Shown here: positions 12,053-31,714 of the stretch, in pieces | Layout: each line of letters starts with the position of its first letter | Position numbering within the stretch: position 1 is the first letter of the stretch | Virus record (IMG/VR): IMGVR_UViG_3300036833_000312 | Location: 1 to 31,714 of that record | Direction: 5' to 3' (one strand) | Source: a virus | Taxonomy: Duplodnaviria > Caudoviricetes | Length of the DNA: 31,714 bases | Position numbers and translations under genes: made by a program | Notes under the pieces: model-generated | The model's input: only the letters and a program-made list of their open reading frames with translations | What the model was told of the DNA's origin: nothing | Databases searched by the model: none

Positions 12053-12100
12053 GTACGGGCGACTGAGAAAGTCAACCATTGAACCAAAGGACAAAAACCG

Positions 12101-12760
12101 ATGAACGACGAAAGCAGAAAAGATCTAGCCCTCGCTCAACCTACCACCCTCGCCATCAGGGAAGCCGAGATCATCGGCGCCGCCGCTGAGGAAGATGGCG
12201 GTGAGAAATTCTTGAAATTCGTCAAGGGTGAATATTTCATCAACAAGGAGCCCGTCGCGCTGGGCAGCGAGTATATCGCGCACTGCGTCGGCTGGACGAA
12301 GTGCTGGATCAAATTCAAGGATGATGGGCCACCCGAGCGCAAGATGTATCCGGTGCTTGAGAAGCAACGCATCCTTGCGCGCGACGAGCTTGACGAAAAC
12401 GATCCGAGCAAATGGGGTCCGGGGTTGGACGGCAAGCCGAAAGACCCATGGGTGTTTCAATATCTTCTGCCGCTAACAAATCAGGCTGATGATCTATTCA
12501 TATTCGTGACGAGTTCTTTTTTTGGCCGGCGCGCGGTCAGCAATCTGTGCCGGCTATATCATCGTAGAACGCTGAGAACCGGGATCAGTGAAAATCCGGT
12601 GGTCAAATTAGCGGCATCGTCGGAAGTCACCAAGAAGTGGGGCAAGGTTCAGTGCCCCTTGTTTGAGGTTGTCGGCTGGGACGGCAGTAAGGAGGCTATC
12701 CGCGAGGTCAATCCGATTGATACTCTCGCCAACGACATGAATGATCAAATCCCCTTTTAG
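12101..12760 (+). CDS. single-stranded DNA-binding/annealing-like protein
   Basis: Acidic SSB-type C-terminal tip (NDMNDQIPF); AAAGGA RBS; next to exonuclease. Confidence 0.7.
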   Translation: MNDESRKDLALAQPTTLAIREAEIIGAAAEEDGGEKFLKFVKGEYFINKEPVALGSEYIAHCVGWTKCWIKFKDDGPPERKMYPVLEKQRILARDELDENDPSKWGPGLDGKPKDPWVFQYLLPLTNQADDLFIFVTSSFFGRRAVSNLCRLYHRRTLRTGISENPVVKLAASSEVTKKWGKVQCPLFEVVGWDGSKEAIREVNPIDTLANDMNDQIPF

Positions 12761-12773
12761 GAAGGACAGGCAA

Positions 12774-12983
12774 ATGCGACGGATCATAACGACTGTGCTG
12801 CTGCTGGGAATTGTGATGCCGGCTTTGGCGCAGGTTCCAATGCCAAGGCCACGACCGGATGCGTGCGTGATAAACCCGGCGAGCTGCAAACCCATTAAAA
12901 TTCAGAATCCGACAAGATCGTGCTCAACAACCTGCCGACCAGATGGGCGGGGCGGGCAGACTTGCACAACGAGCTGCATGTGA
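12774..12983 (+). CDS. small secreted Cys-rich protein
   Basis: Signal peptide MRRIITTVLLLGIVMPALA-Q; 6 Cys; VPMPRPRP; start re-placed at 12774 after AAGGA. Confidence 0.7.
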   Translation: MRRIITTVLLLGIVMPALAQVPMPRPRPDACVINPASCKPIKIQNPTRSCSTTCRPDGRGGQTCTTSCM

Positions 12984-13630
12984 AACGCTACGACGTAGAG
13001 CAGTATTCGGAAGACTGGAAGCGCTTGCGGTTGGGCATTCCAACCGCAAGCAACTTTCATTTGCTGATGACGCCGGGCGGCAAGCCTACCTCGCCCGACA
13101 ACAAGGAACGCCGGCAGTACCTGTATCGCTTGGTGGCCGAACGCATTTTGCAAACGACAATGCCGGATCGCTTCGTCGGTAATCAATTCACCGACGACGG
13201 GCACGAGCGCGAGGGCGCGGCGGCGAATTTGTTTCCGGGCGAATTGTTGCCGGCTGGGTTTTTCACCACCGACGATGGTCGTACCGGCTGCTCACCGGAT
13301 CGGATATTTGCGCATCGTAATGAGGCGGTGGAGATCAAGGCGCCAGCGCCGTGGACGCATATTCAATACATGGTTGACGGCCCAGGCGATAAATACAAAG
13401 CGCAAGTGCAAGGTCAAATTATGATTGGTGAATTCGATTGCTGTCATTTCTGGAGCTATCATCCGGACTTTGCCGCTGTGCATATCCGAACGAGACCAGA
13501 CCCGCGCTATATCGCCTTGCTGCGTTTGCAATTGGATCTGTTTTTGGATGAGCTTGATAACGTCGAGCGCTACGTGCGCCGGCACGGCAATGTCGCGGTT
13601 CTTTTGAAGGAAGTGAGCGATGCGGACTAG
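12980..13630 (+). CDS. YqaJ/lambda-exonuclease family protein
   Basis: QYSEDWKRLRLGIPTAS, GHERE, GCSPDR, VEIKAP, QVQGQI motifs; GTG start overlapping upstream TGA. Confidence 0.9.
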   Translation: MKRYDVEQYSEDWKRLRLGIPTASNFHLLMTPGGKPTSPDNKERRQYLYRLVAERILQTTMPDRFVGNQFTDDGHEREGAAANLFPGELLPAGFFTTDDGRTGCSPDRIFAHRNEAVEIKAPAPWTHIQYMVDGPGDKYKAQVQGQIMIGEFDCCHFWSYHPDFAAVHIRTRPDPRYIALLRLQLDLFLDELDNVERYVRRHGNVAVLLKEVSDAD

Positions 13631-13970
13631 GGACACCAGTACGGGCGATCTGTTCGGCTGGACTGGTGGCAAGGCGGCGCGCGACGAAGGAATGGAGCGG
13701 GCCGTGCGTGGTGGGGGCGATTGGTGGCAGGCGGCCCTGGCCGTGGTGCACGGGTTGCCGGCCGGGTGGGAGGGCAAGTTCGAAGATCTGACCCGATTGG
13801 TGCGAAAGACAATTGGCCCGCCGCCGAAGTCGAGCAATATCTTTGGCGCTTTGGCCAATGCTGCGATGCGGCGGCAGTGGCTGGTCAAGACCGGCAAGCG
13901 CCAGCACATGGAAAAGATCACGTCGCACTCGCGGATTACCGACGTGCTGCGAAGGACATTTTTGCGATGA
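13620..13970 (+). CDS. phage hypothetical protein
   Basis: AAGGAAG RBS; GKAARDEGM...NIFGAL pattern; overlapping gene packing. Confidence 0.75.
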   Translation: MRTRDTSTGDLFGWTGGKAARDEGMERAVRGGGDWWQAALAVVHGLPAGWEGKFEDLTRLVRKTIGPPPKSSNIFGALANAAMRRQWLVKTGKRQHMEKITSHSRITDVLRRTFLR

Positions 13971-14131
13971 TCGAGCCGCGTAAGGCGCGCTTGTCTGGCG
14001 GCCAACGCACCGTTGCTGAAATGACCGAGCGAGCCGAGCTCAATGCGGATGCGCTACCCCAGCCAAAGAGAATTAAAACTAAGGTAAAGAAACACCGCAA
14101 TGTGGGACCAAGGCGGCGCGGGAACAGATAA
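13967..14131 (+). CDS. 54-aa basic hypothetical protein (MIEPRKAR...GPRRRGNR)
   Basis: ATGA overlap; AAGGA RBS; Lys/Arg-rich C-terminus. Confidence 0.6.
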   Translation: MIEPRKARLSGGQRTVAEMTERAELNADALPQPKRIKTKVKKHRNVGPRRRGNR

Positions 14132-14151
14132 GCGGGCGGGAGTAGCACTTT

Positions 14152-14172
14152 AAAATGCCCCGCGCCGGGGCA
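14152..14172 (-). terminator. intrinsic terminator, probable end of the late minus-strand operon
   Basis: Minus strand TGCCCCG-GCG-CGGGGCA followed by TTTT. Confidence 0.55.
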
Positions 14173-14224
14173 CAGTCGGTCGCTGGTGCGTTTTTAAAAA
14201 GATCTGGTACTACACATAGGGTCT

Positions 14225-14301
14225 TGCTAAAATACGCAACGGCTGAGCGCTTACGACGCCCAGCCGTTACTTGACCGGCAACCCTGGATAGGAGAATTGC
14301 C
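14225..14301 (+). promoter_or_regulatory. extended -10 promoter and structured leader of the HNH gene
   Basis: TG-C-TAAAAT at 14225-14233; hairpin 14238-14268; second hairpin GGCAA...TTGCC enclosing AGGAG. Confidence 0.5.
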
Positions 14302-14832
14302 ATGCCCGCCGCCATAGATATCACCGGCCAGCGTTTCGGACGATTGGTCGTTTTGGCCCTTCACCACATAGCTAAGAATTATCATCGCTGCTGGCTCTGC
14401 TCATGTGATTGCGGAAAGCGAAAGGTCGTTAGTTGGCCCGCCTTATCACAAAAGACGACAGTATCCTGTGGGTGTCTTAGGGCTGAGAAAGCGGGAATAA
14501 CAGCGAAAAATCGGACCGTGCACGGTCAAGCTCGCCAAGGGCATCACACCCGCGTTTTTCGCTGTTGGGTAAATATGAAAGATCGCTGTCTCAATCCCAA
14601 GAATAAGCATTTCAAGGACTATGGGGGGCGGGGCATCCAAGTCTGCGAACGATGGCGTTCGTTCTCAAATTTCTTCGAGGATATGGGGCCTTGTCCAGAT
14701 GGCTATTCCATCGAGCGCATTGACGTGAATGGTAACTACGAGTCGGCAAATTGCAAATGGATACCGATGGCAGAGCAGGTCCAAAACACTAGGCGCGCCC
14801 AGAGATCGCGAGCCACACAGCCGGGAAAATAA
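14302..14832 (+). CDS. HNH homing endonuclease-like protein
   Basis: DITGQRFGRL, WLCSCDCG, SCGC, YGGRGIQVCERW, SIERIDVNGNYESANCKW motifs. Confidence 0.88.
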   Translation: MPAAIDITGQRFGRLVVLALHHIAKNYHRCWLCSCDCGKRKVVSWPALSQKTTVSCGCLRAEKAGITAKNRTVHGQARQGHHTRVFRCWVNMKDRCLNPKNKHFKDYGGRGIQVCERWRSFSNFFEDMGPCPDGYSIERIDVNGNYESANCKWIPMAEQVQNTRRAQRSRATQPGK

Positions 14833-15157
14833 CCCCCACGCAGTACACACCAAGCGCCCCAAGCCGATAAGGATCTGGTTGCTGAAGCGCCAGATACGTA
14901 AGGAAAATCCCGCCGGCTACTCCAAGCAAGACAATCAAACGCGCCGCCAGAACCCGAAATAGTACGTTCAGAGAGCCTATGACGGCCGCGCGCCAAGCGC
15001 TTCTAGTGACGAATTCCTGCTGAAGGTTAGGCGCTGTCGCGCTCGGTATCGCCGTCGTCGCCCCAGGCGTCGTTGATGGCGTCGCGGATGATATCATCGT
15101 CTGCAGTTCGCTCGGGTTCCGCTCTTCCGGCAATTGCCTTTCGGCCACGAGCGTCAT
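14789..15157 (-). CDS. membrane protein with 2 C-terminal TM helices
   Basis: LAARLIVLLGVAGGIFLTYLAL and LGALGVYCVGVIFPAVWLA; start uncertain (15211, 15157 or 15097). Confidence 0.6.
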   Translation of the reverse strand: MTLVAERQLPEERNPSELQTMISSATPSTTPGATTAIPSATAPNLQQEFVTRSAWRAAVIGSLNVLFRVLAARLIVLLGVAGGIFLTYLALQQPDPYRLGALGVYCVGVIFPAVWLAISGRA

Positions 15158-15383
15158 GGGCTTTGAAGGCCTTGCTGTATTTTCGTACGGAGCTCCCGGC
15201 GCTGGCGTCATGGATTTTCTCTTTGCGCATTCCCATGAACATTATTTGAATGCGGCCGATGGCGATCAGGGCCGCAATCCGTTCCTTCAGCGTAACACGC
15301 TCATCGGTCTCAAGGTGGTGCAAAATCTCGGAAATCTGATTGTAGAGGCGGACGTTGACGCCGAGCGGATCAAGGCTGCTCAT
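15027..15383 (-). CDS. hypothetical protein
   Basis: ATGA coupling with upstream stop; helical N-terminus, acidic tail. Confidence 0.65.
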   Translation of the reverse strand: MSSLDPLGVNVRLYNQISEILHHLETDERVTLKERIAALIAIGRIQIMFMGMRKEKIHDASAGSSVRKYSKAFKAHDARGRKAIAGRAEPERTADDDIIRDAINDAWGDDGDTERDSA

Positions 15384-16348
15384 TGCTCGGCCTCTTGTGG
15401 CGGTGGCAGAACTGCGGGTGCGGCGCGGCCGGCGGCAAACCCGGCGACACCGGCCGGAATGTGACCGACGATTTGGCCAGCCGCGTCCACGATTTTATTT
15501 CCGACAAGATGCACCTTTTGACCGCTTGGCGTTCGCGTCCAGCGCAGTCCAGGAATGGCCAAGGATGTAATGATCTCGTCGGAAACAGGCACCCCTGTAT
15601 GGAATGCGTGCATGACACCAAAGGCGGCAAGCGAACCGAGCCCATGCGCTCCAAGGGAGCGGCCAATTCCGCTGCGCAATACGCCACCAGCCGCGCCGGG
15701 AATAGCGCCGCCGACCGCACCAGCTACTGCGCCCTGCCCCGGATGCTCGGGATCGGCGATGGCGCCACCGACAGCGCCCCGTTCGGCAGCTCCAGCGCCA
15801 CGAGCAATCGCTCCTGTTATTGCTGCGGCGCGCGGTGAAGTGGCGGCAGCGATTTGGGGTAATTGGCTTAACACCCTAGACCTCATAAATGCTTCGACCG
15901 GTCCACCAGGGATTGCCATGAGGGGAAGCGTTTCAGCAGCGCCTCGCGTAATACTTTCAGTCGTTGATTGACTGGGTTCATCGGCATATTCCCGTGCGCG
16001 GTGATAAGCGTCGCGCACGAATTGCGGCATGTTTCTTTTAGCGATCTGCGTCAGATTGGGGGCAAAAAGGTTTCCCAGCGTTTGTTGAAGTCGAACGATG
16101 TCGGTTCCAAGGCTTGCCAATCCGTGCGGAATGCCACGGGCGATATCGTGCCGTTGGCTCCAGGGTAGATCTTCTTCAGGAGTTTCTGGTTCTGCTGGTG
16201 TGGGCGCGGGAGCGGGAGCGCCGGGGCGCAGCCGGTCGCCCTTACCGCCGGTCAATGGGGCCGCCCCCACTGGCGCGGATGGTTTGTCCGCCCCCGCGAG
16301 CGAATTAGATCGCTTCATGAAGGCGGCGAGATCGCTATCTTCACTCAT
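15380..16348 (-). CDS. internal virion/ejection protein (Gly/Ala-rich)
   Basis: Start re-placed at MSEDSD (16348, GGAG RBS); Gly/Ala-rich hydrophobic segments; synteny. Confidence 0.65.
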   Translation of the reverse strand: MSEDSDLAAFMKRSNSLAGADKPSAPVGAAPLTGGKGDRLRPGAPAPAPTPAEPETPEEDLPWSQRHDIARGIPHGLASLGTDIVRLQQTLGNLFAPNLTQIAKRNMPQFVRDAYHRAREYADEPSQSTTESITRGAAETLPLMAIPGGPVEAFMRSRVLSQLPQIAAATSPRAAAITGAIARGAGAAERGAVGGAIADPEHPGQGAVAGAVGGAIPGAAGGVLRSGIGRSLGAHGLGSLAAFGVMHAFHTGVPVSDEIITSLAIPGLRWTRTPSGQKVHLVGNKIVDAAGQIVGHIPAGVAGFAAGRAAPAVLPPPQEAEQ

Positions 16349-18518
16349 TGACGTGGAGCTCCCAAGGCGGGTTCGGGGTGAGCCCCATGGTTCGCATGGC
16401 GTGTTGTATCTGGGCTTGAATAGCCGGGTCGGGGTTGTCCTTGTTGCGTTGGTAGAAGATCCTGGCGCCGCGTGCCTCGGCCTCAGTCGGTGGCGGTTCA
16501 CGCTCTGTTTTGGATAATCCGGTTCGTGCCTTGGCCGGATCGCGACTAAGTTGCTTGAGCTGCGGTGGTACGTCACTGGGGAATTCGCCGCTGCGCCAAT
16601 TGCTGCGCAAGAACCCGCTATAAAGATCAACGGTTTCTTTGTTTAATCCCGGCGCATAGCCTTTGACGCCAAAATTAGAGAACTGACCTTGTATGTTGCC
16701 GACGCGGCCCCAAGCCTCGGCAAGGTCCTGCATCATGGCGCCGCGAATGGTTTCCGAGGATGCTGTGGCGGGCACAGCCTTCATCATTTCTTCCAGAATA
16801 GTCACACGCGGAACGCCGGTTCCGCTCTGAATAGCGGTGATTGCTTGCTGGACGACACGTAATTGGTTGGCGATCAAATTGTATTCCGGATCTTGGCTCA
16901 GGCCCTTCAATGCCTGATCAAGCTTGGTGCCAAAGTAGTTGGTGTTTTCCTGTTTGCGTAAATTGCTGTAGAGTTGGATCATCACATTCGGCAAGTTGGC
17001 GGCGGCTTGCATTGCTGTGTTTTCTTTGCTGCCCGCCTTGTAGAATTCCTTGAGCTGCGCCGCTTTGGTTGGATCGTATTTCGGATTAACTTGATGTGCC
17101 CAACTACTGAATTGCCCACGTGTGGCGTTGGGTACGTCTTTAAGCTCCTGACGATAGTTGGCTAAATCATCCAAGGTCTGCGCAACATTGGGGTTGATGT
17201 TGCGAATGGCCTCTATTTTTTCTTCGGGCGTGCCGGCGCCGGAAGCGATTTGTCCAATTTCATGACCGATCTGCCCCGCTGCCGTCGCTGCCGCGTGATA
17301 CTTGAGAGGATGCAGCTTTGGCCCCTCTGCCTTGGTCATCCCAGGGACATCGCCCTGTTCAACGATGTCTTGCGCGGCGTTCATACCTTGGTCATTGAGC
17401 CCATTATCTTTCTGGATTTTCTTCAGAGTAGATTTTGCGTCATCGGGCGTTGGCGCTTTTGTTTGATCCGCTGATGCTTCCCGTGTTTCTTCAGCCTGGC
17501 CCTTGAAAAGAGCGTCACGGGCGCTGCTTCCGCTGCCGTCTGTCCAATCATCGGATTGATCGCCGGTTTGTTTCTTTTTGGTTTTGTCGGCATAATCAAG
17601 AACGGCATACGCGCTCCAGAAATCGCGGAGCTTAGCATCATCTTCGAGTAATTGTTGTCTGACCGCACCCGGCCCTTTATTCGCCAGCAGAACACCAAAG
17701 GTAGAGTGTCCGGTTTCTTGATTTAGATTGTCCAGAGCCTCATGATATGCAGCATCATCTATGGTTCCTGCGTCGTGTTTGTTAAATATGTCAGAATACT
17801 TCGACATGATCAGGCTACTGTTGGCGATTGCCTGTGCACCATTTTCCAGCATTTGCTGATGCAGCAATTGCATTTGTTCGGATTGCATTCTCATTCGCGC
17901 TTCCTGCATTCGGACTTGTGCTTCTTGTTGTTGTGTTTCTCCCAACATGGTGCTGCGATAGTGCGAGGAAAAAGCATTTTTACTGTAGAAATCCAGAAAT
18001 GGACCGATGATGCCGGCGATGTCGCTCGCTACCTTTGCCGGACCAGCAACCGAAGGCGGACCAAACATGGCCATTTGTTTGCCGGCGCCGCGTATGACGC
18101 CAGGGGCTTCGTCGCGACTGGGCAAGACGGTAGTAAATTCTAGGCCGGGATAGTGCGGCAATCCGGCAATTGCAGAAGTCGGTTTACCGATCTCGGACAT
18201 TGGTCGTGGTGTCTGGTGTGGCGTGAACCGCTGATTTTCCGGCGGCGGTTTGGGCGGCGTTACTGGTGCGGTTGCAACCGGAGCCTCTGGCGGTCGTGGT
18301 GCGGGCGTCGGTGGCGGTGGCTGTGGGGGACCGCTAGAAAATCCCTGCGTAGGTCGGGTTGTCCAGGGTACGTTGCCGCCAGGAAGTCGGTCCTGAATTT
18401 TCTGGTCAGCTTCCTGCGGTTGAGCCGGTGCGGATTGCGATATTAGTTGCAATGGCGACGGGGCCGGCGGCGGGTAATAGGTCCGATCACTGCCGTCGGC
18501 AGTACTGGTGTCGGTCAT
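16341..18518 (-). CDS. large internal virion/ejection protein
   Basis: Start re-placed at MTDTST (ATGA overlap); Pro-rich N-terminus, Gln/Met coiled coil, helical body; podovirus synteny. Confidence 0.7.
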   Translation of the reverse strand: MTDTSTADGSDRTYYPPPAPSPLQLISQSAPAQPQEADQKIQDRLPGGNVPWTTRPTQGFSSGPPQPPPPTPAPRPPEAPVATAPVTPPKPPPENQRFTPHQTPRPMSEIGKPTSAIAGLPHYPGLEFTTVLPSRDEAPGVIRGAGKQMAMFGPPSVAGPAKVASDIAGIIGPFLDFYSKNAFSSHYRSTMLGETQQQEAQVRMQEARMRMQSEQMQLLHQQMLENGAQAIANSSLIMSKYSDIFNKHDAGTIDDAAYHEALDNLNQETGHSTFGVLLANKGPGAVRQQLLEDDAKLRDFWSAYAVLDYADKTKKKQTGDQSDDWTDGSGSSARDALFKGQAEETREASADQTKAPTPDDAKSTLKKIQKDNGLNDQGMNAAQDIVEQGDVPGMTKAEGPKLHPLKYHAAATAAGQIGHEIGQIASGAGTPEEKIEAIRNINPNVAQTLDDLANYRQELKDVPNATRGQFSSWAHQVNPKYDPTKAAQLKEFYKAGSKENTAMQAAANLPNVMIQLYSNLRKQENTNYFGTKLDQALKGLSQDPEYNLIANQLRVVQQAITAIQSGTGVPRVTILEEMMKAVPATASSETIRGAMMQDLAEAWGRVGNIQGQFSNFGVKGYAPGLNKETVDLYSGFLRSNWRSGEFPSDVPPQLKQLSRDPAKARTGLSKTEREPPPTEAEARGARIFYQRNKDNPDPAIQAQIQHAMRTMGLTPNPPWELHVNE

Positions 18519-20975: not shown

Positions 20976-21301
20976 TAGCCGCCTCCACCCCCGCCCCCAA
21001 CAGCACCACCAAGCTTGCCGAGAATGTTCCCTACTCCACCGGCAAAGTTGCTGAAGGATTGATTGAGGAAGTTTTCTTGCGCTGCCGTGTTCTGCAGCAC
21101 GTTTTGTCCCTGCTGCAGGGCAAGGTTGGCGAGCGGCCCGGTCGCGCCCTGCGTAGCGCCGGTGCTGTGGCCCATGCCCGCCGAAAACTGGGCTGCATTG
21201 GCGACCTCGCCTTCGCCTTTGGTGTATTGATTTAAGGCCGTCTGCAGCCCGGTAGCGGGAACGCCACCCTGCGTCAGCAACGCGCCGATGTTGTTGCTCA
21301 T
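20975..21301 (-). CDS. Gly/Gln/Asn-rich pilot/ejection-like protein
   Basis: GGAGG RBS; ATGA coupling; Gly-rich hydrophobic C-terminus. Confidence 0.7.
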   Translation of the reverse strand: MSNNIGALLTQGGVPATGLQTALNQYTKGEGEVANAAQFSAGMGHSTGATQGATGPLANLALQQGQNVLQNTAAQENFLNQSFSNFAGGVGNILGKLGGAVGGGGGGG

Positions 21302-21819
21302 GAGGCCTCCAAATTGAGCATGAAGCGCGGCCAGAGTTCCTTGGCCCCGAGCCGCTGCGCCATCGGTGCCAGATCAAAGACGGTGTCGGACGCCAGCATC
21401 CAGTGCTTGCACTTGCGTTTGCGCGCCCAATCGATGGAGCCGCGCAATAGCTTCATGGTTTCCCACATGGCGCCATCATCCGCACATACACAAATGACGT
21501 TGCAATCAAATTGCGACGGGAGCCACGGCAGACACGACAGCATTGCAATCATAAACGAGTTGGACAGCCGTACCGGGTAGAACATCATCGGGTTCTTCAA
21601 TACAATATTGCGAAACCAGTTTTCAGTCGTCAGGGCGTCGAACCCCTGATCGTATTTTTTTCCAAAAAGATTTCGCAACCAGGGTAAATCGTTTTCGCTT
21701 AACAGCCACGGTTCCAACAAAACCGTGTCGGCTTCGACCGTTGTTGTAATCTCTGGTCGAAACGCTACGGAATTTGATTGATCCGGTAGTGTTCTTGATG
21801 ATTGACGAAGCTCCACCAT
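21298..21819 (-). CDS. GNAT-fold protein (P22 gp14/T7 gp13-like position)
   Basis: LLRGSIDWARKRKC...MAQRLG GNAT-like C-terminal motif; just upstream of ejection genes; start uncertain. Confidence 0.55.
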   Translation of the reverse strand: MVELRQSSRTLPDQSNSVAFRPEITTTVEADTVLLEPWLLSENDLPWLRNLFGKKYDQGFDALTTENWFRNIVLKNPMMFYPVRLSNSFMIAMLSCLPWLPSQFDCNVICVCADDGAMWETMKLLRGSIDWARKRKCKHWMLASDTVFDLAPMAQRLGAKELWPRFMLNLEAS

Positions 21820-22118: not shown

Positions 22119-22442
22119 CTAATCCTCGCGGCGGCGATTATTATCTCCGCGTAGCTCGCGCGATACCAACGGCGAACTCTCCTGTGGGCCATAAGTGTTG
22201 AGCGCGGTGCCTTCCGGATCGAACCCGCGTGGGGTGATGCGATCCATGCCAAAGTCGCTGCTACCGTTTCTGACGGCGCCGCTTGGTCCGACGGGCGGGG
22301 CAGTGCCGAGACGCAAAGGCCCGACGAGTGAGCGATTTGATTTCAGATAGCCGTCCGGTGTCGCGAAAAACGCCGTTGGACTGCGGCGCTCCGATCCGTC
22401 CTCTCGGGTCCTCGGCCATGCGCGTTGGTTCTCTTTGCTCAT
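22119..22442 (-). CDS. hypothetical protein
   Basis: GGAG RBS; ATGA overlap upstream; abuts next gene. Confidence 0.7.
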   Translation of the reverse strand: MSKENQRAWPRTREDGSERRSPTAFFATPDGYLKSNRSLVGPLRLGTAPPVGPSGAVRNGSSDFGMDRITPRGFDPEGTALNTYGPQESSPLVSRELRGDNNRRRED

Positions 22443-22810
22443 GCTGCAATCTCCATTTTGCGGTGGGGAATGCTTTCTTGCTCCAAAACACCGATTACAT
22501 CATCAGTATTTCGGCAAGTATATACCCTAACGCCGGCCGCGTATAATTGCAGAAACATCGCGCGCTGTTGTTTGGAAATGTCGCCGTCGGCGGCCTTGAG
22601 CTCCACGCCTACGGCACGGCCATTGAAAAATACCAGAATGTCGGGGAACCCAGCTTTGAGCCCGGAGCCACGGAGGCGGCCGGCCGTGGCCTTGCCGAGT
22701 TTCCCCCAACCTGCCGGAAACGTCGTCCATAGCGCGGGCGGAAGCAGACCCCAGTCGAGTAGGTCTGCAACGGCTTTGTGAAGTGCGGCTTCGCTAACCT
22801 TGGCCTTCAT
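22439..22810 (-). CDS. VRR-NUC domain nuclease
   Basis: SEAALH...GLKAGFPDI...GVELKA...SKQQ PD-(D/E)xK motifs. Confidence 0.88.
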   Translation of the reverse strand: MKAKVSEAALHKAVADLLDWGLLPPALWTTFPAGWGKLGKATAGRLRGSGLKAGFPDILVFFNGRAVGVELKAADGDISKQQRAMFLQLYAAGVRVYTCRNTDDVIGVLEQESIPHRKMEIAA

Positions 22811-22974
22811 CGCCGGGCACGGCGCACCGGACCCGTGCGCGCGCCAGGACGGGGTGACCGCCCAGCGCGCCCACGAGCCATCAACCGAGTACGGCTCCAG
22901 TCACTCGGCCAAGCTCCGTCATGCCAAGGCAATCGATTTACCGCACCTGTGCGGCCCTTGACCTTGCGAGCCAT
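22807..22974 (-). CDS. Arg-rich microprotein 6, 55 aa (MARKVKGRTGAVNRLPWHDGAWPSDWSRTRLMARGRAGRSPRPGARTGPVRRARR)
   Basis: Manual translation; TGATG coupling upstream and ATGA coupling to VRR-NUC. Confidence 0.75.
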   Translation of the reverse strand: MARKVKGRTGAVNRLPWHDGAWPSDWSRTRLMARGRAGRSPRPGARTGPVRRARR

Positions 22975-23009
22975 CAGTATCGTCCGCGTCGTCTTCCCCT
23001 GCGTGCCAT
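22974..23009 (-). CDS. Arg-rich microprotein 5, 11 aa (MARRGRRRGRY)
   Basis: GGGAGGT RBS; 3 nt after previous stop; stop overlaps next ATG. Confidence 0.7.
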   Translation of the reverse strand: MARRGRRRGRY

Positions 23010-23012
23010 CGC

Positions 23013-23189
23013 CTACCTCCCACCTCGACGCGAACGCCGATAACGCTGCGATCCGCCGTGCGGACTGCAGTCGCGAGTGTGTCGGGAGCGCGTTTGAGGA
23101 ACAGGAACTTCGGTACGAGGGCGACGCGTGGGGAAGCGGCCTGCAGGGTCAACCCTGGAACGTCCTCCCAGGTCTACACCTCTGGGCAT
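23013..23189 (-). CDS. Arg/Pro-rich microprotein 4, 58 aa (MPRGVDLGGRSRVDPAGRFPTRRPRTEVPVPQTRSRHTRDCSPHGGSQRYRRSRRGGR)
   Basis: AGGAGGT RBS just upstream of ATG; Arg-rich tail. Confidence 0.78.
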   Translation of the reverse strand: MPRGVDLGGRSRVDPAGRFPTRRPRTEVPVPQTRSRHTRDCSPHGGSQRYRRSRRGGR

Positions 23190-23200
23190 CTAAAAACCTC

Positions 23201-23320
23201 CTATAGACGGCGACCCTTCCTGTACGAAAAAAGGCGCGGTCGCCACTTAGGCAACCGCCAGCTTTTCGGTTTGAGGGCTCTCCGCAAATTGGTGCTGTTG
23301 CGTAGCCCGTAGCGAGGCAT
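23201..23320 (-). CDS. Arg/Lys-rich microprotein 3, 39 aa (MPRYGLRNSTNLRRALKPKSWRLPKWRPRLFSYRKGRRL)
   Basis: TAA-ATG abutment; no acidic residues. Confidence 0.72.
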   Translation of the reverse strand: MPRYGLRNSTNLRRALKPKSWRLPKWRPRLFSYRKGRRL

Positions 23321-23407
23321 TTAACGCCTGCGGCGTCTTGCCCGCGCGGCCTTACGTGATGCCGGGACCATTACCATACGGCGGCGTTTGCGTCCTCGGC
23401 GAGCCAT
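23321..23407 (-). CDS. Arg-rich microprotein 2, 28 aa (MARRGRKRRRMVMVPASRKAARARRRRR)
   Basis: TAA-ATG abutment; GAGGA upstream; 13 Arg + 2 Lys. Confidence 0.75.
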   Translation of the reverse strand: MARRGRKRRRMVMVPASRKAARARRRRR

Positions 23408-23449
23408 TTACCGGCGTCCTCGGCGGTGGCGGCGTCTACGTCGTGCCAT
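23408..23449 (-). CDS. protamine-like microprotein 1, 13 aa (MARRRRRHRRGRR)
   Basis: GGGAGAGGA RBS before ATG; 9 of 13 residues Arg using 5 different codons. Confidence 0.75.
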   Translation of the reverse strand: MARRRRRHRRGRR

Positions 23450-23529
23450 GTTGTCCTCTCCCTCGATTGAGTGGGTAGCGCACCAGCGGTGCGTTCTTGG
23501 GCTACGATACGGAGCCGATTTGCAAAGCG

Positions 23530-23560
23530 ATGATCGACCTAAACACTATTAGTCGTCAAG
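23530..23560 (-). promoter_or_regulatory. putative internal promoter for the microprotein cluster
   Basis: CTTGACG-N18-GATCAT in the only sizeable intergenic gap; leader hairpin CGCACC-GCT-GGTGCG. Confidence 0.45.
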
Positions 23561-23572
23561 TAGGGTGGCTGA

Positions 23573-25270
23573 CTACGCTCCCCATAGCACCCTGTCTTCG
23601 ACCATCAGATGAATGCGTTCCAGCGTGAAATCAGGCGATAGCGATTGAATGTCTAGAGCGGCTGCGATGCCCGCGCCCTGCAGTGCTTGTGGTTCAAAAG
23701 CGGATGTCGAAGCCGTGCCGGCCGGTCCGGCAATCTGTGCCGGCGTATGCGGTCCTGGCGCCAGGGCAAAATTCACTTCCTGAATGCCGTTAGGAATGCC
23801 GCCGCCTGTTGTCGTCAGATTGCCGGCCCAATTCACCCCGCGCCCGTCATTGTCGAAGAATTCCATAAATATGCGCTTCGCGTTTTTGATCGTTAATTGC
23901 TGCAAGCCCTCACCGCGCACGAATTTGGTGGACAGGATTTTGAGAAGATTAGGGTCGGGAGTAGCGAATAGTTGATACAAGTGCGTGCCATCGGTACCGA
24001 ATGGGGTGATGACGCTGTCTTGCTCATAGGAGGCGATGTTGGTCAGTTCCAAGCCGGCGCCTTGTGATGCAATCGACCAGAAATCGCTTCCTGTTCGCGG
24101 GTGCCACATCAGGATCAGATTACGAGTCACACCATAAATGTCAGTAAATCGGCCATTACACAACAACACGCGAAACCCGAACATGGTTGCCGGGGCCATG
24201 GTCGGATAGTACAGGGTGGTATCTGAAGCAGTTTTAGGGATGACAAGCGTGTTAAAAACGTTGGTGGTCTTTTGCCCAATATCAATTGCCTCACCCCCGC
24301 GAAGTTCGAATATGCCGGCGCCATTCCACGTCTGCATAAAGCGGCCGATGCGCCCCACCGGACGCGGAAAACGTTGTCCGACCTGGGGATCGACATTGGT
24401 GTAAGCCAAGTTAGTGGTGAAAGGTGCCTCGGGCGTGCCTGATCCGATCAGTTCCACTTGGTTAATTAGATCAACTGAACTGTCGCCAAAAACGTACAGG
24501 TACCCGGCGGTCGCTGCGAGATCCATGTAGCTGTAGGTCAGGCGGTCGCCGAAGTAGCCAAAGCTGCCACCGCCGTCTGTGGTGGAAAAATCCGCGCCGT
24601 TGGAGGGGGCGGAAAATGAAATCACGTCTTTGCCAGCCACGAATAATCGCGATTGGTAGACCTCCATCGTGTAAATGCCGGGTAATCCTGTCGGCATGGT
24701 AAACGGTACACCGGGAGAGACCTCCTTCGCATCGGTCAACCAGTCAGGCGCCGAAGCGCCAGGACGCGAAAGCGTAGTGCCATCCCAGCCAAACATGCCG
24801 AGTGGCGAGCCGAACAAGACGCCGCCTTGCTGGCCGCTGACGTTGCCGACAAAGCGCGGGCGCCACACTTTAGCGCTCGCCCAATATTGTGGGGCAATTG
24901 GTTGCCATACTGGCGCGGCGGCAGTGCCGATATGTGTGACGGTCAGGGTATCAACATCAACTTGATCGATGCTGCCGTCGCTGAGGAACATCCAACCGTA
25001 ACGGCCGGGTGGTGGGGCGCTGTTCTGTGGCGTGATATCGCCGATAAAACCGAAAAATATACGCAAGATCGTCACGCCGGCAGGCGCGGTATAAAGCACG
25101 GGGCCATGGCCCCAGCAGGAACGCAAATTCCCAGGTCCAATTGCGAAGAGGTTCTCGTTCCACCACTGCTCATCGTCCGCTATTGACCCGCGTCCGGTCT
25201 GTTGATTGAGTCCTAGTATCCAATTCTGGAATGTGTGGAGTTGCGGGGGGTTTGCTGACTGGATGGGCAT
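23573..25270 (-). CDS. tail nozzle/stabilisation protein (P22 gp10/T7 gp12-like)
   Basis: 565 aa, beta-propeller-like pattern (GLNQ..., YQSRLFVAG...ISFS, LYVFG); downstream of adaptor. Confidence 0.75.
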   Translation of the reverse strand: MPIQSANPPQLHTFQNWILGLNQQTGRGSIADDEQWWNENLFAIGPGNLRSCWGHGPVLYTAPAGVTILRIFFGFIGDITPQNSAPPPGRYGWMFLSDGSIDQVDVDTLTVTHIGTAAAPVWQPIAPQYWASAKVWRPRFVGNVSGQQGGVLFGSPLGMFGWDGTTLSRPGASAPDWLTDAKEVSPGVPFTMPTGLPGIYTMEVYQSRLFVAGKDVISFSAPSNGADFSTTDGGGSFGYFGDRLTYSYMDLAATAGYLYVFGDSSVDLINQVELIGSGTPEAPFTTNLAYTNVDPQVGQRFPRPVGRIGRFMQTWNGAGIFELRGGEAIDIGQKTTNVFNTLVIPKTASDTTLYYPTMAPATMFGFRVLLCNGRFTDIYGVTRNLILMWHPRTGSDFWSIASQGAGLELTNIASYEQDSVITPFGTDGTHLYQLFATPDPNLLKILSTKFVRGEGLQQLTIKNAKRIFMEFFDNDGRGVNWAGNLTTTGGGIPNGIQEVNFALAPGPHTPAQIAGPAGTASTSAFEPQALQGAGIAAALDIQSLSPDFTLERIHLMVEDRVLWGA

Positions 25271-26406: not shown

Positions 26407-27735
26407 TCACTTTCGTCGCCCGCGTCTTGGCCGTATTGGCGGTTCGTCGTTTGCGAATATCATCGCTTCGCCGCCGCCACCACCGGAGCTAGGTTCTGCC
26501 GCGAGCATAGCGGTTGGAAGGGTGAAGCTCGGCGGCGGGAATGCCGGTCCAATTGGCGGTCCCCAGCCACCTACGGGAATATTTTGCGTTGTTGTCGTAT
26601 GCGGTGGTGTTGTTGGTGAAACTCCATCGGTGAATATGTTGCTGAACACAATTGGCGGGCTGGGGAATATTGTTGTCGAATATGGGAATAAGGTGTGTGG
26701 AACGGTGGCGCTGCCGCTGCCAAATTGCGGTTGCGTAACACCGGCTATGGATGGCGGTACTGCTGCGGCAGCAATGGCCGGTCCGACCAGTACGCCAGGA
26801 GGGATGTGTCCAATCGGCGGCGGTGTTGGTGGCGGGAAAGTTGGCGGTGGGCCGCCGCCTCGCCCAATCAGGGGTGGCGGCACGAGCGGCGTAAAGGCGG
26901 GGAACAGACTTGACGGTGGTGGCGTCGTTACTGGTGTATGTACCGTGCCACCGGTCCATGTTGCTGTTCCGGCATTAGCAAAACCGAAACTAATGTACAA
27001 CTGATTATGTGTGCTTACAGTAGGCCCGCCGATAGGAATGTTTGTTACTGTGTCTGCAACATTTGCGGTAAGAGGAACAACTGAAGCTGTTTGTTGTGTT
27101 TCTCCACCCCATTGATAATAAATAGTCATATTTGTACTTGTAGTATGGGTCATTGTTACATCTAGCAACAAATTGGATGGCCCACTGTTATTTTCCCCAA
27201 AATACAGACTTCCATCAGTTGCGATGGTGGCTTTCTGTCCGACAGAAATACCGGAAAAAGTAGTTTGATAAGGATTAGTTGCAGTCGAGAAATTAGTGAT
27301 ATTTGCTACAAGATCAGGAGAAGGTATGAAAACTTTGACACCGGCAAAATTCGTTGTCGCGGATAAATTGAAACCAACATACAAAGCAAGGGTGTGTCCA
27401 TTAGGCGGAAGTATGCTTGTCACGGCTACTGAATATGGACTAGGGCCGCTAGCAATGGCATTTATTGTTCCATTATCCCAAGCAGCGGCGACCTGCATGA
27501 CATCTGCGGCACCCATTGTAAGATTTAACGCAAAATACACAGCTTGGGTTGGCACGGTCAAAAATGCCAAATCACCATTCCCATTGATAGCGGCAATACC
27601 GGATGGAGTTACAGAAGCAAATCGAAAATGATACCAACCGGATGTAGGCCCTCCCGTGTTGCCATCAGCAACGGTAGCCGTCAATATTGCTTGCCCGTAT
27701 GCACTCGGTTCAACAATAAGATGCTGGTCAGACAT
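26407..27735 (-). CDS. putative capsid decoration/surface protein (beta-rich N-terminus, Pro-rich C-terminus)
   Basis: Thr/Asn-rich beta region with low GC; poly-Pro half; ends PIRPRRGRRK; follows capsid. Confidence 0.6.
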   Translation of the reverse strand: MSDQHLIVEPSAYGQAILTATVADGNTGGPTSGWYHFRFASVTPSGIAAINGNGDLAFLTVPTQAVYFALNLTMGAADVMQVAAAWDNGTINAIASGPSPYSVAVTSILPPNGHTLALYVGFNLSATTNFAGVKVFIPSPDLVANITNFSTATNPYQTTFSGISVGQKATIATDGSLYFGENNSGPSNLLLDVTMTHTTSTNMTIYYQWGGETQQTASVVPLTANVADTVTNIPIGGPTVSTHNQLYISFGFANAGTATWTGGTVHTPVTTPPPSSLFPAFTPLVPPPLIGRGGGPPPTFPPPTPPPIGHIPPGVLVGPAIAAAAVPPSIAGVTQPQFGSGSATVPHTLFPYSTTIFPSPPIVFSNIFTDGVSPTTPPHTTTTQNIPVGGWGPPIGPAFPPPSFTLPTAMLAAEPSSGGGGGEAMIFANDEPPIRPRRGRRK

Positions 27736-28046: not shown

Positions 28047-29075
28047 TTACGGAGGCGGTGCCGCCGGGAACCCTGCCTGCCCGCCAGTGATGCCAGTAAT
28101 GATCACGCCTGTTGATGGCTTGGAGCAAACAAGATTTAGCGCAGTCAACGACAGTCCGACGCTGGCGATTTGTCCTTGTGGAATTGTTGAATACCAACCA
28201 GTCCAGGCGAAATTGCAGTCCTCATGTATGACCAGCGTGATATATTTACTGTTAAACCCAAATGCAGTGCCCACCGGGCAGTTGAGGTCGAAGAAGATCG
28301 GTGTATCGCCCAGCAGTAGCCCTCTGAAACCACTGTTGACCGGATCGTCTTTGCCCCACCTGCTCGATGGGTCGTTGTTGTAGCGCTCAACCGTCATAAA
28401 GTCGGTGAGCAGCGTTGTCCAGTCCTCTACCGAAGTGACAACAAAATCGAGTGCCTCGCCGCCTGAGTGTTTGACGGCTTTCAGCAATGTCGGAATCATC
28501 GTGGCGCGGGTGAGGATAGCGCCGGCCGTTGGTATGCTGAGCCCGGCCCAGGTTGGATACGTAGCCCGATCAAGTCCGCCGTAAACGCCGGTGGCGCCAT
28601 AAGCGTCATTCAGGCTAAACATTTGCAGCACATTAGCCGTAGGCGGACCAAACAACGCGGCGCTCAACGAATTCAACGCAGAATTCTTCATATCGTTGAG
28701 TTTCAACATAAGGCGGGAGGCGACGGCAATGGCGTCCTGAGTTACGAGCTGCTCCAAACCCAGGGATGACACTGGCGTCGCCAAAGCACAAAGATTGAAT
28801 TCTGCATTGACGGTGGCGGCCACATCGGTAGGCAAATTAAACTGACCAGCAGGTCCGATCCACGACGATGTCACGTACTGGCCAGTTTGCACAGGCTGCG
28901 TATATGGGCTCACGCCGCCCGATGCGCGAATGGCATTTCTAAGCAATAACGCTAAAAGCGGGTTCTGCCTGTAGAGCAGAACAACAACCATCTGAGCGAA
29001 AACTCGTCTTACTGTCGCTTGGAGCTCAAGGCCAATCGGGCCACTCGGAATTAGGCCGGTCCCTAGTACGGGCAA
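28047..29075 (-). CDS. major capsid protein (HK97-fold expected)
   Basis: 342 aa; follows scaffold; YGGLDRATYPTW, SGFRGL, FFDLNCP patterns; AGGAGG RBS with TTG start. Confidence 0.85.
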   Translation of the reverse strand: MPVLGTGLIPSGPIGLELQATVRRVFAQMVVVLLYRQNPLLALLLRNAIRASGGVSPYTQPVQTGQYVTSSWIGPAGQFNLPTDVAATVNAEFNLCALATPVSSLGLEQLVTQDAIAVASRLMLKLNDMKNSALNSLSAALFGPPTANVLQMFSLNDAYGATGVYGGLDRATYPTWAGLSIPTAGAILTRATMIPTLLKAVKHSGGEALDFVVTSVEDWTTLLTDFMTVERYNNDPSSRWGKDDPVNSGFRGLLLGDTPIFFDLNCPVGTAFGFNSKYITLVIHEDCNFAWTGWYSTIPQGQIASVGLSLTALNLVCSKPSTGVIITGITGGQAGFPAAPPP

Positions 29076-30838: not shown

Positions 30839-31714
30839 CTACCCCCCACCACCACCCTTGCGACGGCGCCCGCTGCGGCCACTGCTGCGCCCGCTAGAAG
30901 GCAACTGCAGCACGTCGCGCAGCATTTCCTTTTGCTCCTGTGCTTGTGCCGCTTTGGCTTGATTTTTCTGCCGTTGCCGCAGTCGTGCCAGCAGAAGTTC
31001 GGCACTTGGCGGGTGCAGCATGTGGATCAGATCCTCGGCATCGATGGCGCCAGCACGGGCGAGCGCAATGGCGACTTGCCGGTTGTCTTCAGCAAAGGCT
31101 GGACTGGCGCTGTGGCTATCGACTTGAACTTGAAAATTATCCGGCAGATCGTGCAAGACGAACTCCTGCCCGCTATCGGTCGAATAAATCAACGCGTCCA
31201 TGGCCTGCATGATGCGCAGTGACAGATACCCGGATTGAGCCAATTGCCGCTCGACGCGAGCAGCCTGATCAATGAGTCGTGGAGAGGACGTGCGGACCAA
31301 AGTCTGCGCGTGAACACCGGCGCGCACCCCAGGTTCGCCTTGCCCGGACATGACCGGGGTGAATCCGCCGGCCTCGTCAAACATTTGGAAGATGAATTGA
31401 AGTTCCTCCATGTAACCAGGGGGCGGTGGTTCAACGAGTTTTTTAGCTGTTGCGTTTGGATTTGGGTCGTTGATGAACCCGCCTTCATTGATGATTTTGT
31501 AATACATTTCTTCAGTAACTCCGGTAAATCCGGAGAAGACTTGCGGCGCATTGACGTTCCGGTCCCACATCACCTTGATGTCGCGCAGTCTCTTGTTTAA
31601 CAAGTCTTGTAACATCTGCACATCGGCAATGTAGCTGCGGCCCCAGAAATAGCCGGGCGTGACTTGCGGCTGGATTTTGACGAATGACGAATGTCCGGGA
31701 ACGCGCGAGAGATT
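30839..31714 (-). CDS. portal protein, C-terminal part (5' end outside the window)
   Basis: Frame open to the window edge; PGYFWGRS, MSGQGEPGVRAG, VQVDSHSASP patterns typical of podovirus portals. Confidence 0.85.
   Translation of the reverse strand, partial: NLSRVPGHSSFVKIQPQVTPGYFWGRSYIADVQMLQDLLNKRLRDIKVMWDRNVNAPQVFSGFTGVTEEMYYKIINEGGFINDPNPNATAKKLVEPPPPGYMEELQFIFQMFDEAGGFTPVMSGQGEPGVRAGVHAQTLVRTSSPRLIDQAARVERQLAQSGYLSLRIMQAMDALIYSTDSGQEFVLHDLPDNFQVQVDSHSASPAFAEDNRQVAIALARAGAIDAEDLIHMLHPPSAELLLARLRQRQKNQAKAAQAQEQKEMLRDVLQLPSSGRSSGRSGRRRKGGGGG

Follow-up and report, generated by a model that had tools for sequence, protein, structure and literature searches.

A conserved array of arginine-rich micro-genes in the virion module of a podophage clade, and its possible role in neutralizing phage DNA

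The standard example of dense DNA packing is the tailed phage, in which polyamines and metal ions serve as counter-ions. Can such a phage encode counter-ions of its own? The question is raised by a stretch of 31,714 nucleotides from an uncultured soil phage (IMG/VR record IMGVR_UViG_3300036833_000312; the whole stretch is referred to here as the window), in which positions 23449–22807 of the minus strand are tiled by six chained, arginine-rich micro-ORFs.

The six ORFs are real genes. The initial annotation had described six minus-strand frames of 13, 28, 39, 58, 11, and 55 residues, all starting MAR or MPR and together using all six arginine codons, and each of these statements is borne out; the codons occur in proportions resembling those of the phage's large genes. 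When the 766-nt interval was shuffled 2000 times with its dinucleotides preserved, six MAR/MPR ORFs never arose (maximum 2), nor did six Arg-rich ORFs (maximum 3) or a chain of six (maximum 4). The spacings at the successive junctions are 0, 0, +11, +3, and −1 nt, followed by −4 into the VRR-NUC gene. Among the junctions originally listed, the spacer between ORF3 and ORF4 had been given too short; it is 11 nt long, with an AGGAGG that overlaps the stop. One full set of the six peptides, whose arginine content spans 25% to 69%, amounts to 23.7 kDa with a net charge of +70. One contig among four DNA sequencing runs spans the stretch with no differences and is possibly the window's own source, while other contigs from these runs cover it in pieces; the search listed no RNA run with the stretch, which has no bearing on expression.

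The peptides fall into two compositional groups. ORF1 (23408..23449, on the minus strand like every gene described below; net +9) and ORF5 (22974..23009; net +6) are near-pure polycations with 69% and 55% Arg. ORF1 has its own Shine-Dalgarno sequence, and ORF5 occupies a variable slot, which other relatives leave vacant or use for longer, RGG-rich peptides. ORF2 (23321..23407; net +15) is a mobile cassette, B, with a V-x-V-P-A-S motif flanked by Arg runs. These three have charge densities of 4.5–5.3 charges per kDa and Ser plus Thr counts of 0 (ORF1), 1 (ORF2), and 0 (ORF5). ORF3 (23201..23320; cassette D; net +14), ORF4 (23013..23189; cassette E; net +12), and ORF6 (22807..22974; cassette F; net +14) contain only 25–28% Arg and carry conserved non-basic motifs: W-R-x-P-x-W-x-P-R in ORF3, a near-invariant RSRVDPAG in the ORF4 alignment, and conserved Trp and Asp residues with PRPGxRTGP in that of ORF6. 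Acidic residues number 0–4 per window peptide, the hydrophobic fraction is just 15–16% in ORF1 and ORF4, the long peptides are rich in Pro and Gly, and RS/SR dipeptides are frequent only in ORF4. A terminator-like hairpin lies within ORF3 at 23258–23236; four such hairpins were found versus 2.5 expected.

ORF2, ORF3, ORF4, and ORF6 have no Pfam, PHROG, or above-cut-off NCBIfam match; ORF1 and ORF5 fall below the length usable for family scans. PDB sequence searches with ORF4 and ORF6 profiles gave nothing significant, and an ESM Atlas search for ORF4 gave no usable match. A VgrG-related match to ORF6 is taken as chance, with E values of 0.31 from PDB and 0.088 from NCBIfam, the latter falling far short of the cut-off. 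Searches of Pfam, PHROGs, NCBIfam, and PDB thus found no known virion protein linked to the peptides by sequence. Regardless of function, new microprotein families are defined by the conserved motifs of ORF3, ORF4, and ORF6. The earlier remark that standard callers miss these ORFs applies only to the shortest, which are missing from annotations and make micro-genes of this kind easy to overlook; homologues of ORF4 and ORF6 sit in a predicted-protein collection, some labelled "hypothetical protein" (13 matches for ORF4, and 16 in a further search).

The labels first given to the flanking genes, nozzle and VRR-NUC, both hold. The upstream anchor (23573..25270; 565 aa) is a podophage tail nozzle-like gene. 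Its structural model is of low confidence (pLDDT 44), and all five of its matches at E ≤ 0.001 are podophage tail entries, P22 gp10 and the PhiM1 nozzle complex among them; a sequence search of the PDB gave no significant match. The non-coding spacer between nozzle and ORF1 (23450..23572) contains the ORF1 Shine-Dalgarno sequence and one weak sigma70-like match (23559–23530, 9/12 in a promoter scan), and has a folding z of 0.0. The downstream anchor (22439..22810), which passes the Pfam VRR_NUC cut-off (PF08774), resembles Holliday-junction resolvases, enzymes that debranch DNA ahead of packaging, and its start overlaps the ORF6 stop by 4 nt. In 65 of 68 relatives this slot holds one of three interchangeable resolvase families, and the 4-nt overlap into the next gene recurs in 49 of 68. 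A likely acetyltransferase-like gene (21298..21819), for which the one lead is an ESM Atlas cluster (score 0.95) whose members carry PF00583 in 44% of cases, precedes the presumed ejection-protein genes; Mx8 has an acyltransferase at the equivalent position. The array thus has the nozzle gene on one side and the presumed ejection-protein genes on the other, and lies about 12 kb away from the amidase endolysin gene. Assignment to the podophages is based on the major capsid protein (28047..29075; phrog_9953; NF033394 capsid_maj_Podo, above cut-off), the adaptor (PF24175), and the nozzle-like fold.

The major capsid protein was used to define a clade around the window and a sister lineage. Of the clade genomes, 70 were assessable, representing 66 distinct ones at a cut-off of 95% nozzle identity; all 70 have an array after the nozzle gene, so that the conservation in relatives by which the initial annotation proposed to judge the array is present throughout. 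The 1.5 kb after the nozzle gene holds a mean of 7.1 Arg-rich ORFs, whereas controls average 1.9 on the opposite strand, 1.9 upstream, and 1.3 far downstream. Coupling, also proposed as a check, is seen at 327 of 340 junctions, which lie within −14 to +15 nt; a Shine-Dalgarno 4-mer is present at 226 of these 327 versus 12% of control windows. Synonymous variation points the same way: cassette B is found in 19 of 70 loci with dN/dS 0.11, D in 56 of 70 (0.13), E in 68 of 70 (0.12), and the cassette F motif in 70 of 70 (0.23), and across the peptide families dN/dS is 0.10–0.23, with dS near 1 and dN near 0.1. Such values indicate purifying selection rather than an arms race. The third-position bias persists in an alignment built without protein guidance, which confirms dN/dS. 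In this nucleotide-only alignment, differences from close relatives by codon position are 9/5/23 for ORF1 (four relatives), 35/20/75 for ORF3, 31/29/100 for ORF4, 11/5/17 for ORF5, and 33/20/65 for ORF6; the spacer, at 44/49/49, lacks codon periodicity. In the ORF4 and ORF6 alignments the non-basic motifs are near-invariant over nozzle identities of 51–99%. Judged from sequence, the array is a conserved set of coupled, protein-coding genes within the virion module.

The array is also modular, with fast turnover of cassettes, which exchange and relocate, and with mobile genes inserted between ORFs. Cassette B occupies several different array positions among relatives; one genome whose nozzle is 99% identical (L013) has cassette C in place of ORF2, and another (L057) has HNH genes inserted inside the chain. 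Some relatives contain a cassette with an acidic leader and an Arg tail. The Glu preceding that tail is not invariant, and a cleavage-site reading was set aside as a lead only. A scan for a Shine-Dalgarno sequence followed by MARRRR returned 82 loci: six from the clade, three from a capsid-related outgroup plus L111, and the rest unrelated; the unrelated loci are for the most part solitary ORFs or longer proteins, and no tandem array like that of the clade was seen among them. The lineage is large, with an estimated 1300 or so matching stretches in IMG/VR. No named isolate falls within the clade, INPHARED giving two uncultured spring phages and only remote capsid matches (Mx8, Mx9, and BUCT555). 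Weak hints of hosts come from three MAG contigs (Xanthobacteraceae, Caulobacteraceae, and Terracidiphilus) and one amidase labelled Xanthobacteraceae, all subject to possible mis-binning.

In the sister lineage, whose loci were gathered by the capsid protein alone, micro-genes are found behind the portal. Of 50 distinct loci, 35 have basic micro-ORFs led by a Shine-Dalgarno sequence in the interval from the portal gene to the capsid gene; the matches number 52 in 81 kb, with none in the remaining 424 kb and none antisense. The two positions are mutually exclusive, since micro-genes follow the portal in 0 of 77 clade loci and the nozzle in 0 of 32 sister loci. Cassette C is found at both positions (L175 and L258), which implies that both homes are virion-assembly blocks. 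The sister peptides contain 28% Arg and 24% Lys. Because Lys is used about as often as Arg, the conserved trait, as read from these compositions, is positive charge and not arginine, with Arg/Lys use shifting with lineage. A micro-ORF passing the filter is absent from 15 of the 50 loci; eight of the 15 were inspected, of which seven, mostly from one tight subclade, have none and one is a near miss. The short peptides are thus dispensable in close kin. Related micro-genes are also found at 39–55% GC, and five DNA variants of one 13-mer differ 0/0/20 by codon position. Fourteen sister loci have a conserved putative pseudoknot ahead of one micro-ORF. In two sister-lineage GenBank genomes, antisense hypothetical genes are annotated over the shortest micro-ORFs. 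Sister phages of about 35 kb carry one to three short genes, and the soil clade, at about 42 kb, carries four to eight with a median net charge of +68; this trend of charge with genome size spans two lineages only and is confounded with GC.

What might the peptides do? Position, charge, conservation, and analogy make it somewhat probable that they are made late and bind and partly neutralize DNA in the head, or on its way there. The sister micro-genes directly behind the portal gene lend this role indirect support. The peptides would be made alongside virion proteins, at high level, by co-translation through the tight junctions; they would bind phage DNA during packaging and remain inside the head or portal–tail channel as virion-associated counter-ions and anchors. 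ORF1, ORF2, and ORF5 may behave like genetically encoded polyamines with no fixed site, while ORF3, ORF4, and ORF6 may use their non-basic motifs to attach to a virion protein and lay their Arg tails on DNA. Neutralization would be partial: at about 300 copies apiece, the peptides would counter 25% of the phosphates in a 42.5-kb genome and take up about one fifth of the free space in the head (for an assumed inner radius of 27.5 nm), so that full protamine-style condensation is unlikely. It counts against the proposal that strong polycations can cause packaging motors to stall and can impede ejection; a literature search on such effects found nothing. The resolvase of the same operon is presumably non-structural, and location in the late operon therefore does not imply packaging.

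A bolder form of this proposal, that tens to hundreds of co-packaged polycations of 10–60 residues act as "phage protamines" and replace host polyamines as the main counter-ion, is possible but doubtful. In that case the dose would be set by adding, swapping, and relocating cassettes.

Precedents among phages are closer than the initial annotation held, since both the microvirus J/VP8 proteins and T7 gp7.3 are basic peptides of the virion that contact DNA. The J/VP8 proteins of phiX174 and SpV4 (about 38 aa in SpV4) are rich in Arg and Lys, bind the genome through the basic part, and dock on the capsid through a non-basic motif, as set out in the accessible text of PMC11281519. ORF3, ORF4, and ORF6 likewise join a basic segment to a conserved non-basic motif, a likeness of architecture only, in which docking is conjectural. 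J/VP8 is, in that account, encoded by one gene only, in an ssDNA virus with T=1 symmetry that lacks a packaging portal, whereas four to eight different genes per genome are found here in a tailed dsDNA podophage, and Pfam, PHROGs, and PDB searches found no homology. T7 gp7.3 and gp6.7 and the phiKMV-like gp34 are small podophage virion proteins encoded beside the portal, according to the available portions of PMC11784390 and 10.64898/2026.05.18.726046, and the sister-lineage micro-genes are similarly portal-adjacent. As far as the latter source is accessible, gp7.3 and gp34 typically have 100–140 residues, predicted helices, basic ends, and an acidic or A/Q/P core, and are encoded upstream of the portal; 6–8 copies have been resolved, and for T7 biochemistry puts the number at about 30. 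The micro-peptides, in contrast, have 11–58 residues and nearly no acidic ones, are multiple, and are encoded after the nozzle or the portal; they have no detected homology to gp7.3 or gp34.

Resemblance to eukaryotic viral proteins is mixed. The protamine-like label of the initial annotation suits ORF1, ORF2, and ORF5 by composition (46–69% Arg) but not ORF3, ORF4, and ORF6, at 25–28%. Adenovirus Mu and pVII are protamine-like core proteins of a eukaryotic dsDNA virus. A small second residue permits removal of Met and avoids an N-terminal Arg, and the MAR/MPR start that the array has in common with baculovirus P6.9 is probably convergent. P6.9 is Arg/Ser-rich and phosphorylation-switched, in the accessible part of PMC6163548. 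It is matched by the very small size, arginine richness, and starts of the window peptides, whose charge density would be enough in principle for sequence-nonspecific DNA binding. ORF1, ORF2, and ORF5 differ from it in being nearly free of Ser and Thr, and the host here is bacterial and the head motor-filled, unlike the situation for P6.9 and Mu; Pfam, PHROG, and NCBIfam gave no P6.9-type homology for ORF2, ORF3, ORF4, or ORF6. Proteins IPI–III of T4 are small, variable, partly dispensable, and packaged with DNA, and they need an N-terminal leader cut by the prohead protease. The array is likewise a group of small, variable, partly dispensable genes, packaging being the T4 feature. The window peptides differ in starting directly with basic residues; they have no T4-type targeting leader, which counts against their entry into a motor-filled head, and no protease match was found among the 29–34 window proteins scanned, about 10 kb of the genome being absent from the window.

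It is less likely that the peptides act unpackaged in the infected cell, where they could compact or sort phage DNA or shut down the host through its nucleoid, RNA, or ribosomes. Tight chaining to a presumably non-structural resolvase fits such a role, a set of different peptides, each with its own conserved motif, would be apt for a set of targets, and quick cassette turnover is a habit of host-interaction genes; the Pro-Arg motifs of ORF6 and ORF3 resemble those of proline-rich antimicrobial peptides. However, both genomic homes lie within virion-assembly blocks, one of them directly behind the portal, host-takeover genes are usually early, and the dN/dS values speak for purifying selection.

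Less likely again are membrane-active or escort factors, ejected together with core proteins to aid envelope crossing or to protect DNA against nucleases, or else serving in lysis as "disruptins" of the outer membrane. The position of the array next to the presumed ejection-protein genes is suggestive, T7 gp6.7 and phiKMV-like gp34 are small ejection-linked proteins, and phiKT gp28, in the accessible part of 10.1101/515445, is a cationic lysis peptide of 56 aa, in the size range of ORF4 and ORF6. That peptide has a predicted amphipathic helix, a net charge of +7, and a place within its lysis cassette, whereas the array is remote from the amidase endolysin gene and its peptides are Pro/Gly-rich or pure polycations with 25–69% Arg and, in ORF1 and ORF4, low hydrophobicity. 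The sister peptides, moreover, adjoin the portal and not ejection genes. The escort variant overlaps with a role on DNA in the head, because it too requires packaging.

It is very unlikely that the ORFs serve translation control, as leader peptides, Arg-tRNA sensors, or ribosome relays adjusting the downstream resolvase and virion genes, with the peptides as by-products. Tight coupling does reach into the next gene, AGG makes up 25% of codons near junctions versus 7% elsewhere, and the putative pseudoknot precedes one sister micro-ORF; but the AGG excess is limited to the 20 nt immediately ahead of the following start, in which AGG forms the Shine-Dalgarno sequence, the non-basic motifs are near-invariant, the downstream gene varies by lineage, and HNH genes interrupt one chain. 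Arg-tRNA-sensitive control, an alternative offered by the initial annotation, is disfavored by this origin of the AGG excess and by the Lys content of the sister peptides; Arg and Lys are interchangeable and the downstream genes are not those of Arg metabolism, contrary to what an amino-acid-sensing leader would lead one to expect. It is scarcely credible that the Arg-rich frames arose incidentally from high GC or from some structured element in the RNA or DNA, since the region's 63% GC and the folding of the whole array (z −2.4 versus 20 shuffles; mean −0.9 over 10 genomes versus +0.4 for nozzle controls) are set against inconsistent z values (−4.0 to +1.0), the absence of any match at E ≤ 1 to Rfam 15 covariance models in 22300–23800, the failure of shuffles to reproduce the array, the related micro-genes of lower GC with their silent 13-mer variants, and, mainly, the pattern of synonymous change.

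An array of this kind in tailed phages was not found in the literature searched. The accessible text of the ICP1 paper (PMC7567579) concerns host arginine genes rather than phage peptides and states the polyamine view, and that of PMC13320001 contains nothing on polyamines. A conserved, selected, and modular set of polycations in a virion operon makes self-supply of counter-ions directly testable. None of the ORF1, ORF3, and ORF5 products is computed to yield a tryptic peptide of at least seven residues. If the phage-protamine proposal were true, a class of virion components would have been largely missed by gene callers and tryptic proteomics, and self-supplied counter-ions would bear on capsid pressure, motor load, ejection, and the survival of virions in soil.

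The interval between the nozzle-like gene (25270-23573, minus strand) and the Holliday-junction-resolvase-like VRR-NUC gene (22810-22439, minus strand) is filled by six ATG-led minus-strand ORFs of 13, 28, 39, 58, 11, and 55 codons (ORF1–ORF6, 23449-22807), exactly as the initial annotation had claimed. Successive ORFs are separated by 0, 0, +11, +3, and −1 nt, and ORF6 overlaps the VRR-NUC gene (−4 nt). All six Arg codons are indeed in use, in proportions that resemble those of the phage's large genes. Shuffling the interval 2000 times with dinucleotide content preserved never yielded six ORFs beginning MAR or MPR (maximum 2), six Arg-rich ORFs (maximum 3), or a chain of six ORFs (maximum 4).

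The window is a 31.7-kb podophage fragment whose capsid protein and adaptor score above the NF033394 and PF24175 cut-offs, respectively. The 565-aa product of the nozzle-like gene gave a poor structure model (pLDDT 44), for which all five Foldseek matches at E≤0.001 are podophage tail entries. The sequencing sets best matching the window DNA are labeled soil metagenome, and phage genome searches, including INPHARED, found no cultured member of the clade of nozzle-profile relatives.

A search with a nozzle profile matched 94 viral loci, of which the best 80 were taken, together with three genome contigs; from these 83 loci and the window, four with an incomplete nozzle and ten with less than 1.5 kb downstream were left out, giving 70. 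Arg-rich small ORFs, which had been proposed as a check in relatives, follow the nozzle in every one of the 70 (at least four each, mean 7.1), and the same filter is passed antisense in 11/70, upstream in 5/70, and far downstream in 1/61. Grouped by nozzle identity, these 70 loci make up 66 clusters at a 95% threshold, 48 at 85%, and 11 at 70%; arrays up to the ORF6 cassette contain 4–8 ORFs, with a median net charge of +68.5. The ORF6-type family recurs in all 70, the ORF4-type in 68, cassette C in 60, the ORF3-type in 56, a post-resolvase cassette in 36, and the ORF2-type in 19.

Within six families from the best 80 of 94 loci, the expected synonymous variation is evident: pairwise dN/dS is 0.10–0.23 at dS of 0.7–1.1, with the caveats that pairs are non-independent and that protein-guided alignment pushes the ratio down. 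A nucleotide-only alignment of the window with four close relatives agrees, with differences by codon position of 9/5/23 (ORF1), 35/20/75 (ORF3), 31/29/100 (ORF4), 11/5/17 (ORF5), and 33/20/65 (ORF6); the corresponding figures for the spacer are 44/49/49. ORF2 lacks periodicity (55/52/62) because the four relatives carry a different cassette there. The proposed coupling is likewise borne out in the best 80 of 94 loci, where 327/340 junctions lie within −14 to +15 nt, 131/340 are −1 overlaps, and a Shine-Dalgarno (SD) 4-mer is present at 226/327 junctions versus 277/2294 control windows. The micro-ORFs are real, tightly chained genes under selection for charge and short non-basic motifs.

The array is modular. 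Among the 70 loci (from the best 80 of 94), the commonest cassette order is C-D-E-F, where D, E, and F are the ORF3-, ORF4-, and ORF6-types, and 17 orders or subsets are seen. The window and locus L013, whose nozzles are 99% identical, differ by a clean exchange of the second cassette; the ORF2-type is also placed between ORF3 and ORF4 or after the resolvase, and in locus L057 an HNH-like gene lies exactly between ORF3 and ORF4, leaving both intact. Behind ORF6, the next long gene encodes a resolvase-like protein in 65/68 loci from the best 80 of 94 (31 VRR-NUC-type, 22 phrog_1770, 12 phrog_244), the remainder being two HNH-type endonucleases and one gene without a match; it overlaps the ORF6 stop by 4 nt in 49/68. 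The slot at 22439-22810 and its counterparts in relatives, where these three families stand in for one another mostly without loss of the 4-nt overlap, are a clear case of non-orthologous displacement of resolvases inside a virion operon. A further cassette, absent from the window, joins a conserved acidic/aromatic leader of 10–20 residues to an Arg tail; about 31 distinct versions were counted by eye among 38 listed. In many clade loci (L027, L033, L041, and L044 among them) it comes first behind the nozzle; it follows the resolvase in L071, L072, and L076, and is fused to an ORF2-type cassette in L086. The leader may serve as a pro-peptide or for docking.

A second position lies behind the portal in a sister lineage. 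In each of two GenBank phages with 36% capsid identity, a pair of unannotated basic ORFs of 13 codons, both with strong SDs, lies between the portal and scaffold genes, and four further loci with this layout came from a motif scan. To avoid circularity, sister loci were gathered with the capsid protein as the sole query (best 80 of at least 594); 57 contained both the portal end and the capsid start, 50 after removal of seven duplicates. SD-led ORFs of 8–45 aa with at least 35% Arg+Lys occur in the portal-to-capsid interval of 35/50, at least one in each; 52 lie in 81 kb of interval, with none in the other 424 kb and none antisense (best 80 of 594). These phages are mostly 39–55% GC, and their micro-peptides are 28% Arg and 24% Lys; one 13-mer has five DNA variants that differ in third positions only (0/0/20). 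By this filter, the first kilobase behind the nozzle is free of these ORFs in all 32 sister loci (best 80 of at least 594), as is the region after the portal in all 77 clade loci (best 80 of 94). Cassette C lies behind the portal in loci L175 and L258, which indicates that the two positions belong to one gene class; the micro-genes occupy two different virion-assembly blocks. The filter finds none in 15/50 sister loci (best 80 of 594), and of eight inspected, seven are truly without micro-ORFs and one is a near miss, which counts against essentiality. In 14 sister loci a conserved putative H-type pseudoknot precedes the SD of a single basic micro-ORF by ~10–20 nt (L096:4813-4860; L097:25809-25858, minus strand; L166:3302-3345, minus strand; also L289, L308, L314, L316, L317, L319, L324, L325, L331, L332, and L336), with apparent C-G to U-A covariation judged by eye. 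That in L316 has no Rfam match, and the pattern was not found in clade arrays; an autoregulatory operator is one possibility.

The reading that we favor, with a confidence just above even, is that the peptides would be made late and at a high level, bind DNA, and stay in the particle. Two classes may be envisaged. ORF1, ORF2, and ORF5 (46–69% Arg, 4.5–5.3 charges per kDa) are freely exchanged and would act like encoded polyamines, whereas ORF3, ORF4, and ORF6 (25–28% Arg, 1.8–2.9 per kDa) retain near-invariant Trp, Pro, Asp, and Gly residues that suggest a docking site. One peptide set carries +70 in 23.7 kDa, so that by calculation ~120, ~300, or ~600 sets offset 10%, 25%, or 50% of the phosphates of a 42.5-kb genome. 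The ~120–600 sets would fill 3,500–17,400 nm3 of the roughly 42,000 nm3 free in the head, a volume that rests on an assumed 27.5-nm inner radius. Partial charge neutralization is feasible; full DNA condensation is unlikely. Large contigs of the clade extend to 40–43.7 kb (best 80 of 94 loci), and the two complete sister genomes, of 34.2 and 35.6 kb, have far less peptide charge, a comparison of two lineages only that is compatible with a dose effect.

Action in the cytoplasm on nucleic acid, or against the host, is unlikely but carries appreciable weight, and membrane or escort roles seem rather improbable. Translational control by the ORFs is very doubtful; the excess of AGG codons is restricted to the SD zone. 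That the array is an artefact is scarcely credible.

Basic C-terminal tails are present on the portal and on two further presumed virion proteins (30839-30900, 26407-26460, and 1540-1575, all minus strand), and for the portal the tail is basic in the majority of the 77 listed clade loci. Near the endolysin gene, on the strand opposite to its neighbors, a 47-aa ORF whose tail is Arg-rich (11184-11327, plus strand) matches phrog_2423, of unknown function. A conserved, unannotated 107-aa gene after the resolvase (22119-22442, minus strand) combines two conserved motifs with an Arg-rich end, and conserved unannotated 55–70-aa genes flank the Gly/Pro-rich gene in the sister portal-to-capsid interval; these are candidates for gp6.7/gp7.3-like roles. 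Proteins of 49–407 aa with SD-led MARRRR starts in unrelated viral contigs (L112, L117, L154, L159, L179) perhaps represent core proteins from other groups of viruses.

Searches of Pfam, PHROG, NCBIfam, PDB, and Rfam found no family covering the array, and full-text searches of mainly open-access literature yielded no description of tailed phages with polycationic micro-genes in tandem; the peptides are possibly already catalogued as anonymous small-protein families (e.g., in the small-gene catalogue of Fremin 2022). In Myxococcus phage Mx8, whose capsid is remotely related, an acyltransferase gene directly follows the gene in the equivalent position, and the annotation shows no small genes between the two. 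The mode of action may be likened to that of microvirus J/VP8, described as basic, genome-binding, and docked within the capsid (PMC11281519), and to that of T7 gp7.3, whose basic N-terminus is described as surrounding the DNA end (PMC11784390; gp34 is described as a protein of this type, bioRxiv 10.64898/2026.05.18.726046). Tests of position, size, and sequence fail, so the array is a member of neither. Baculovirus P6.9, described as Arg/Ser-rich and phosphorylation-switched (PMC6163548), is similar in composition only, and the purest array peptides are almost without Ser/Thr; phiKT disruptin, as described in 10.1101/515445, differs in position and predicted structure. The array is a real feature that, by analogy, appears related to known small basic viral nucleic-acid-binding peptides, and it is unusual in its virus class, gene number, modularity, and relocation.
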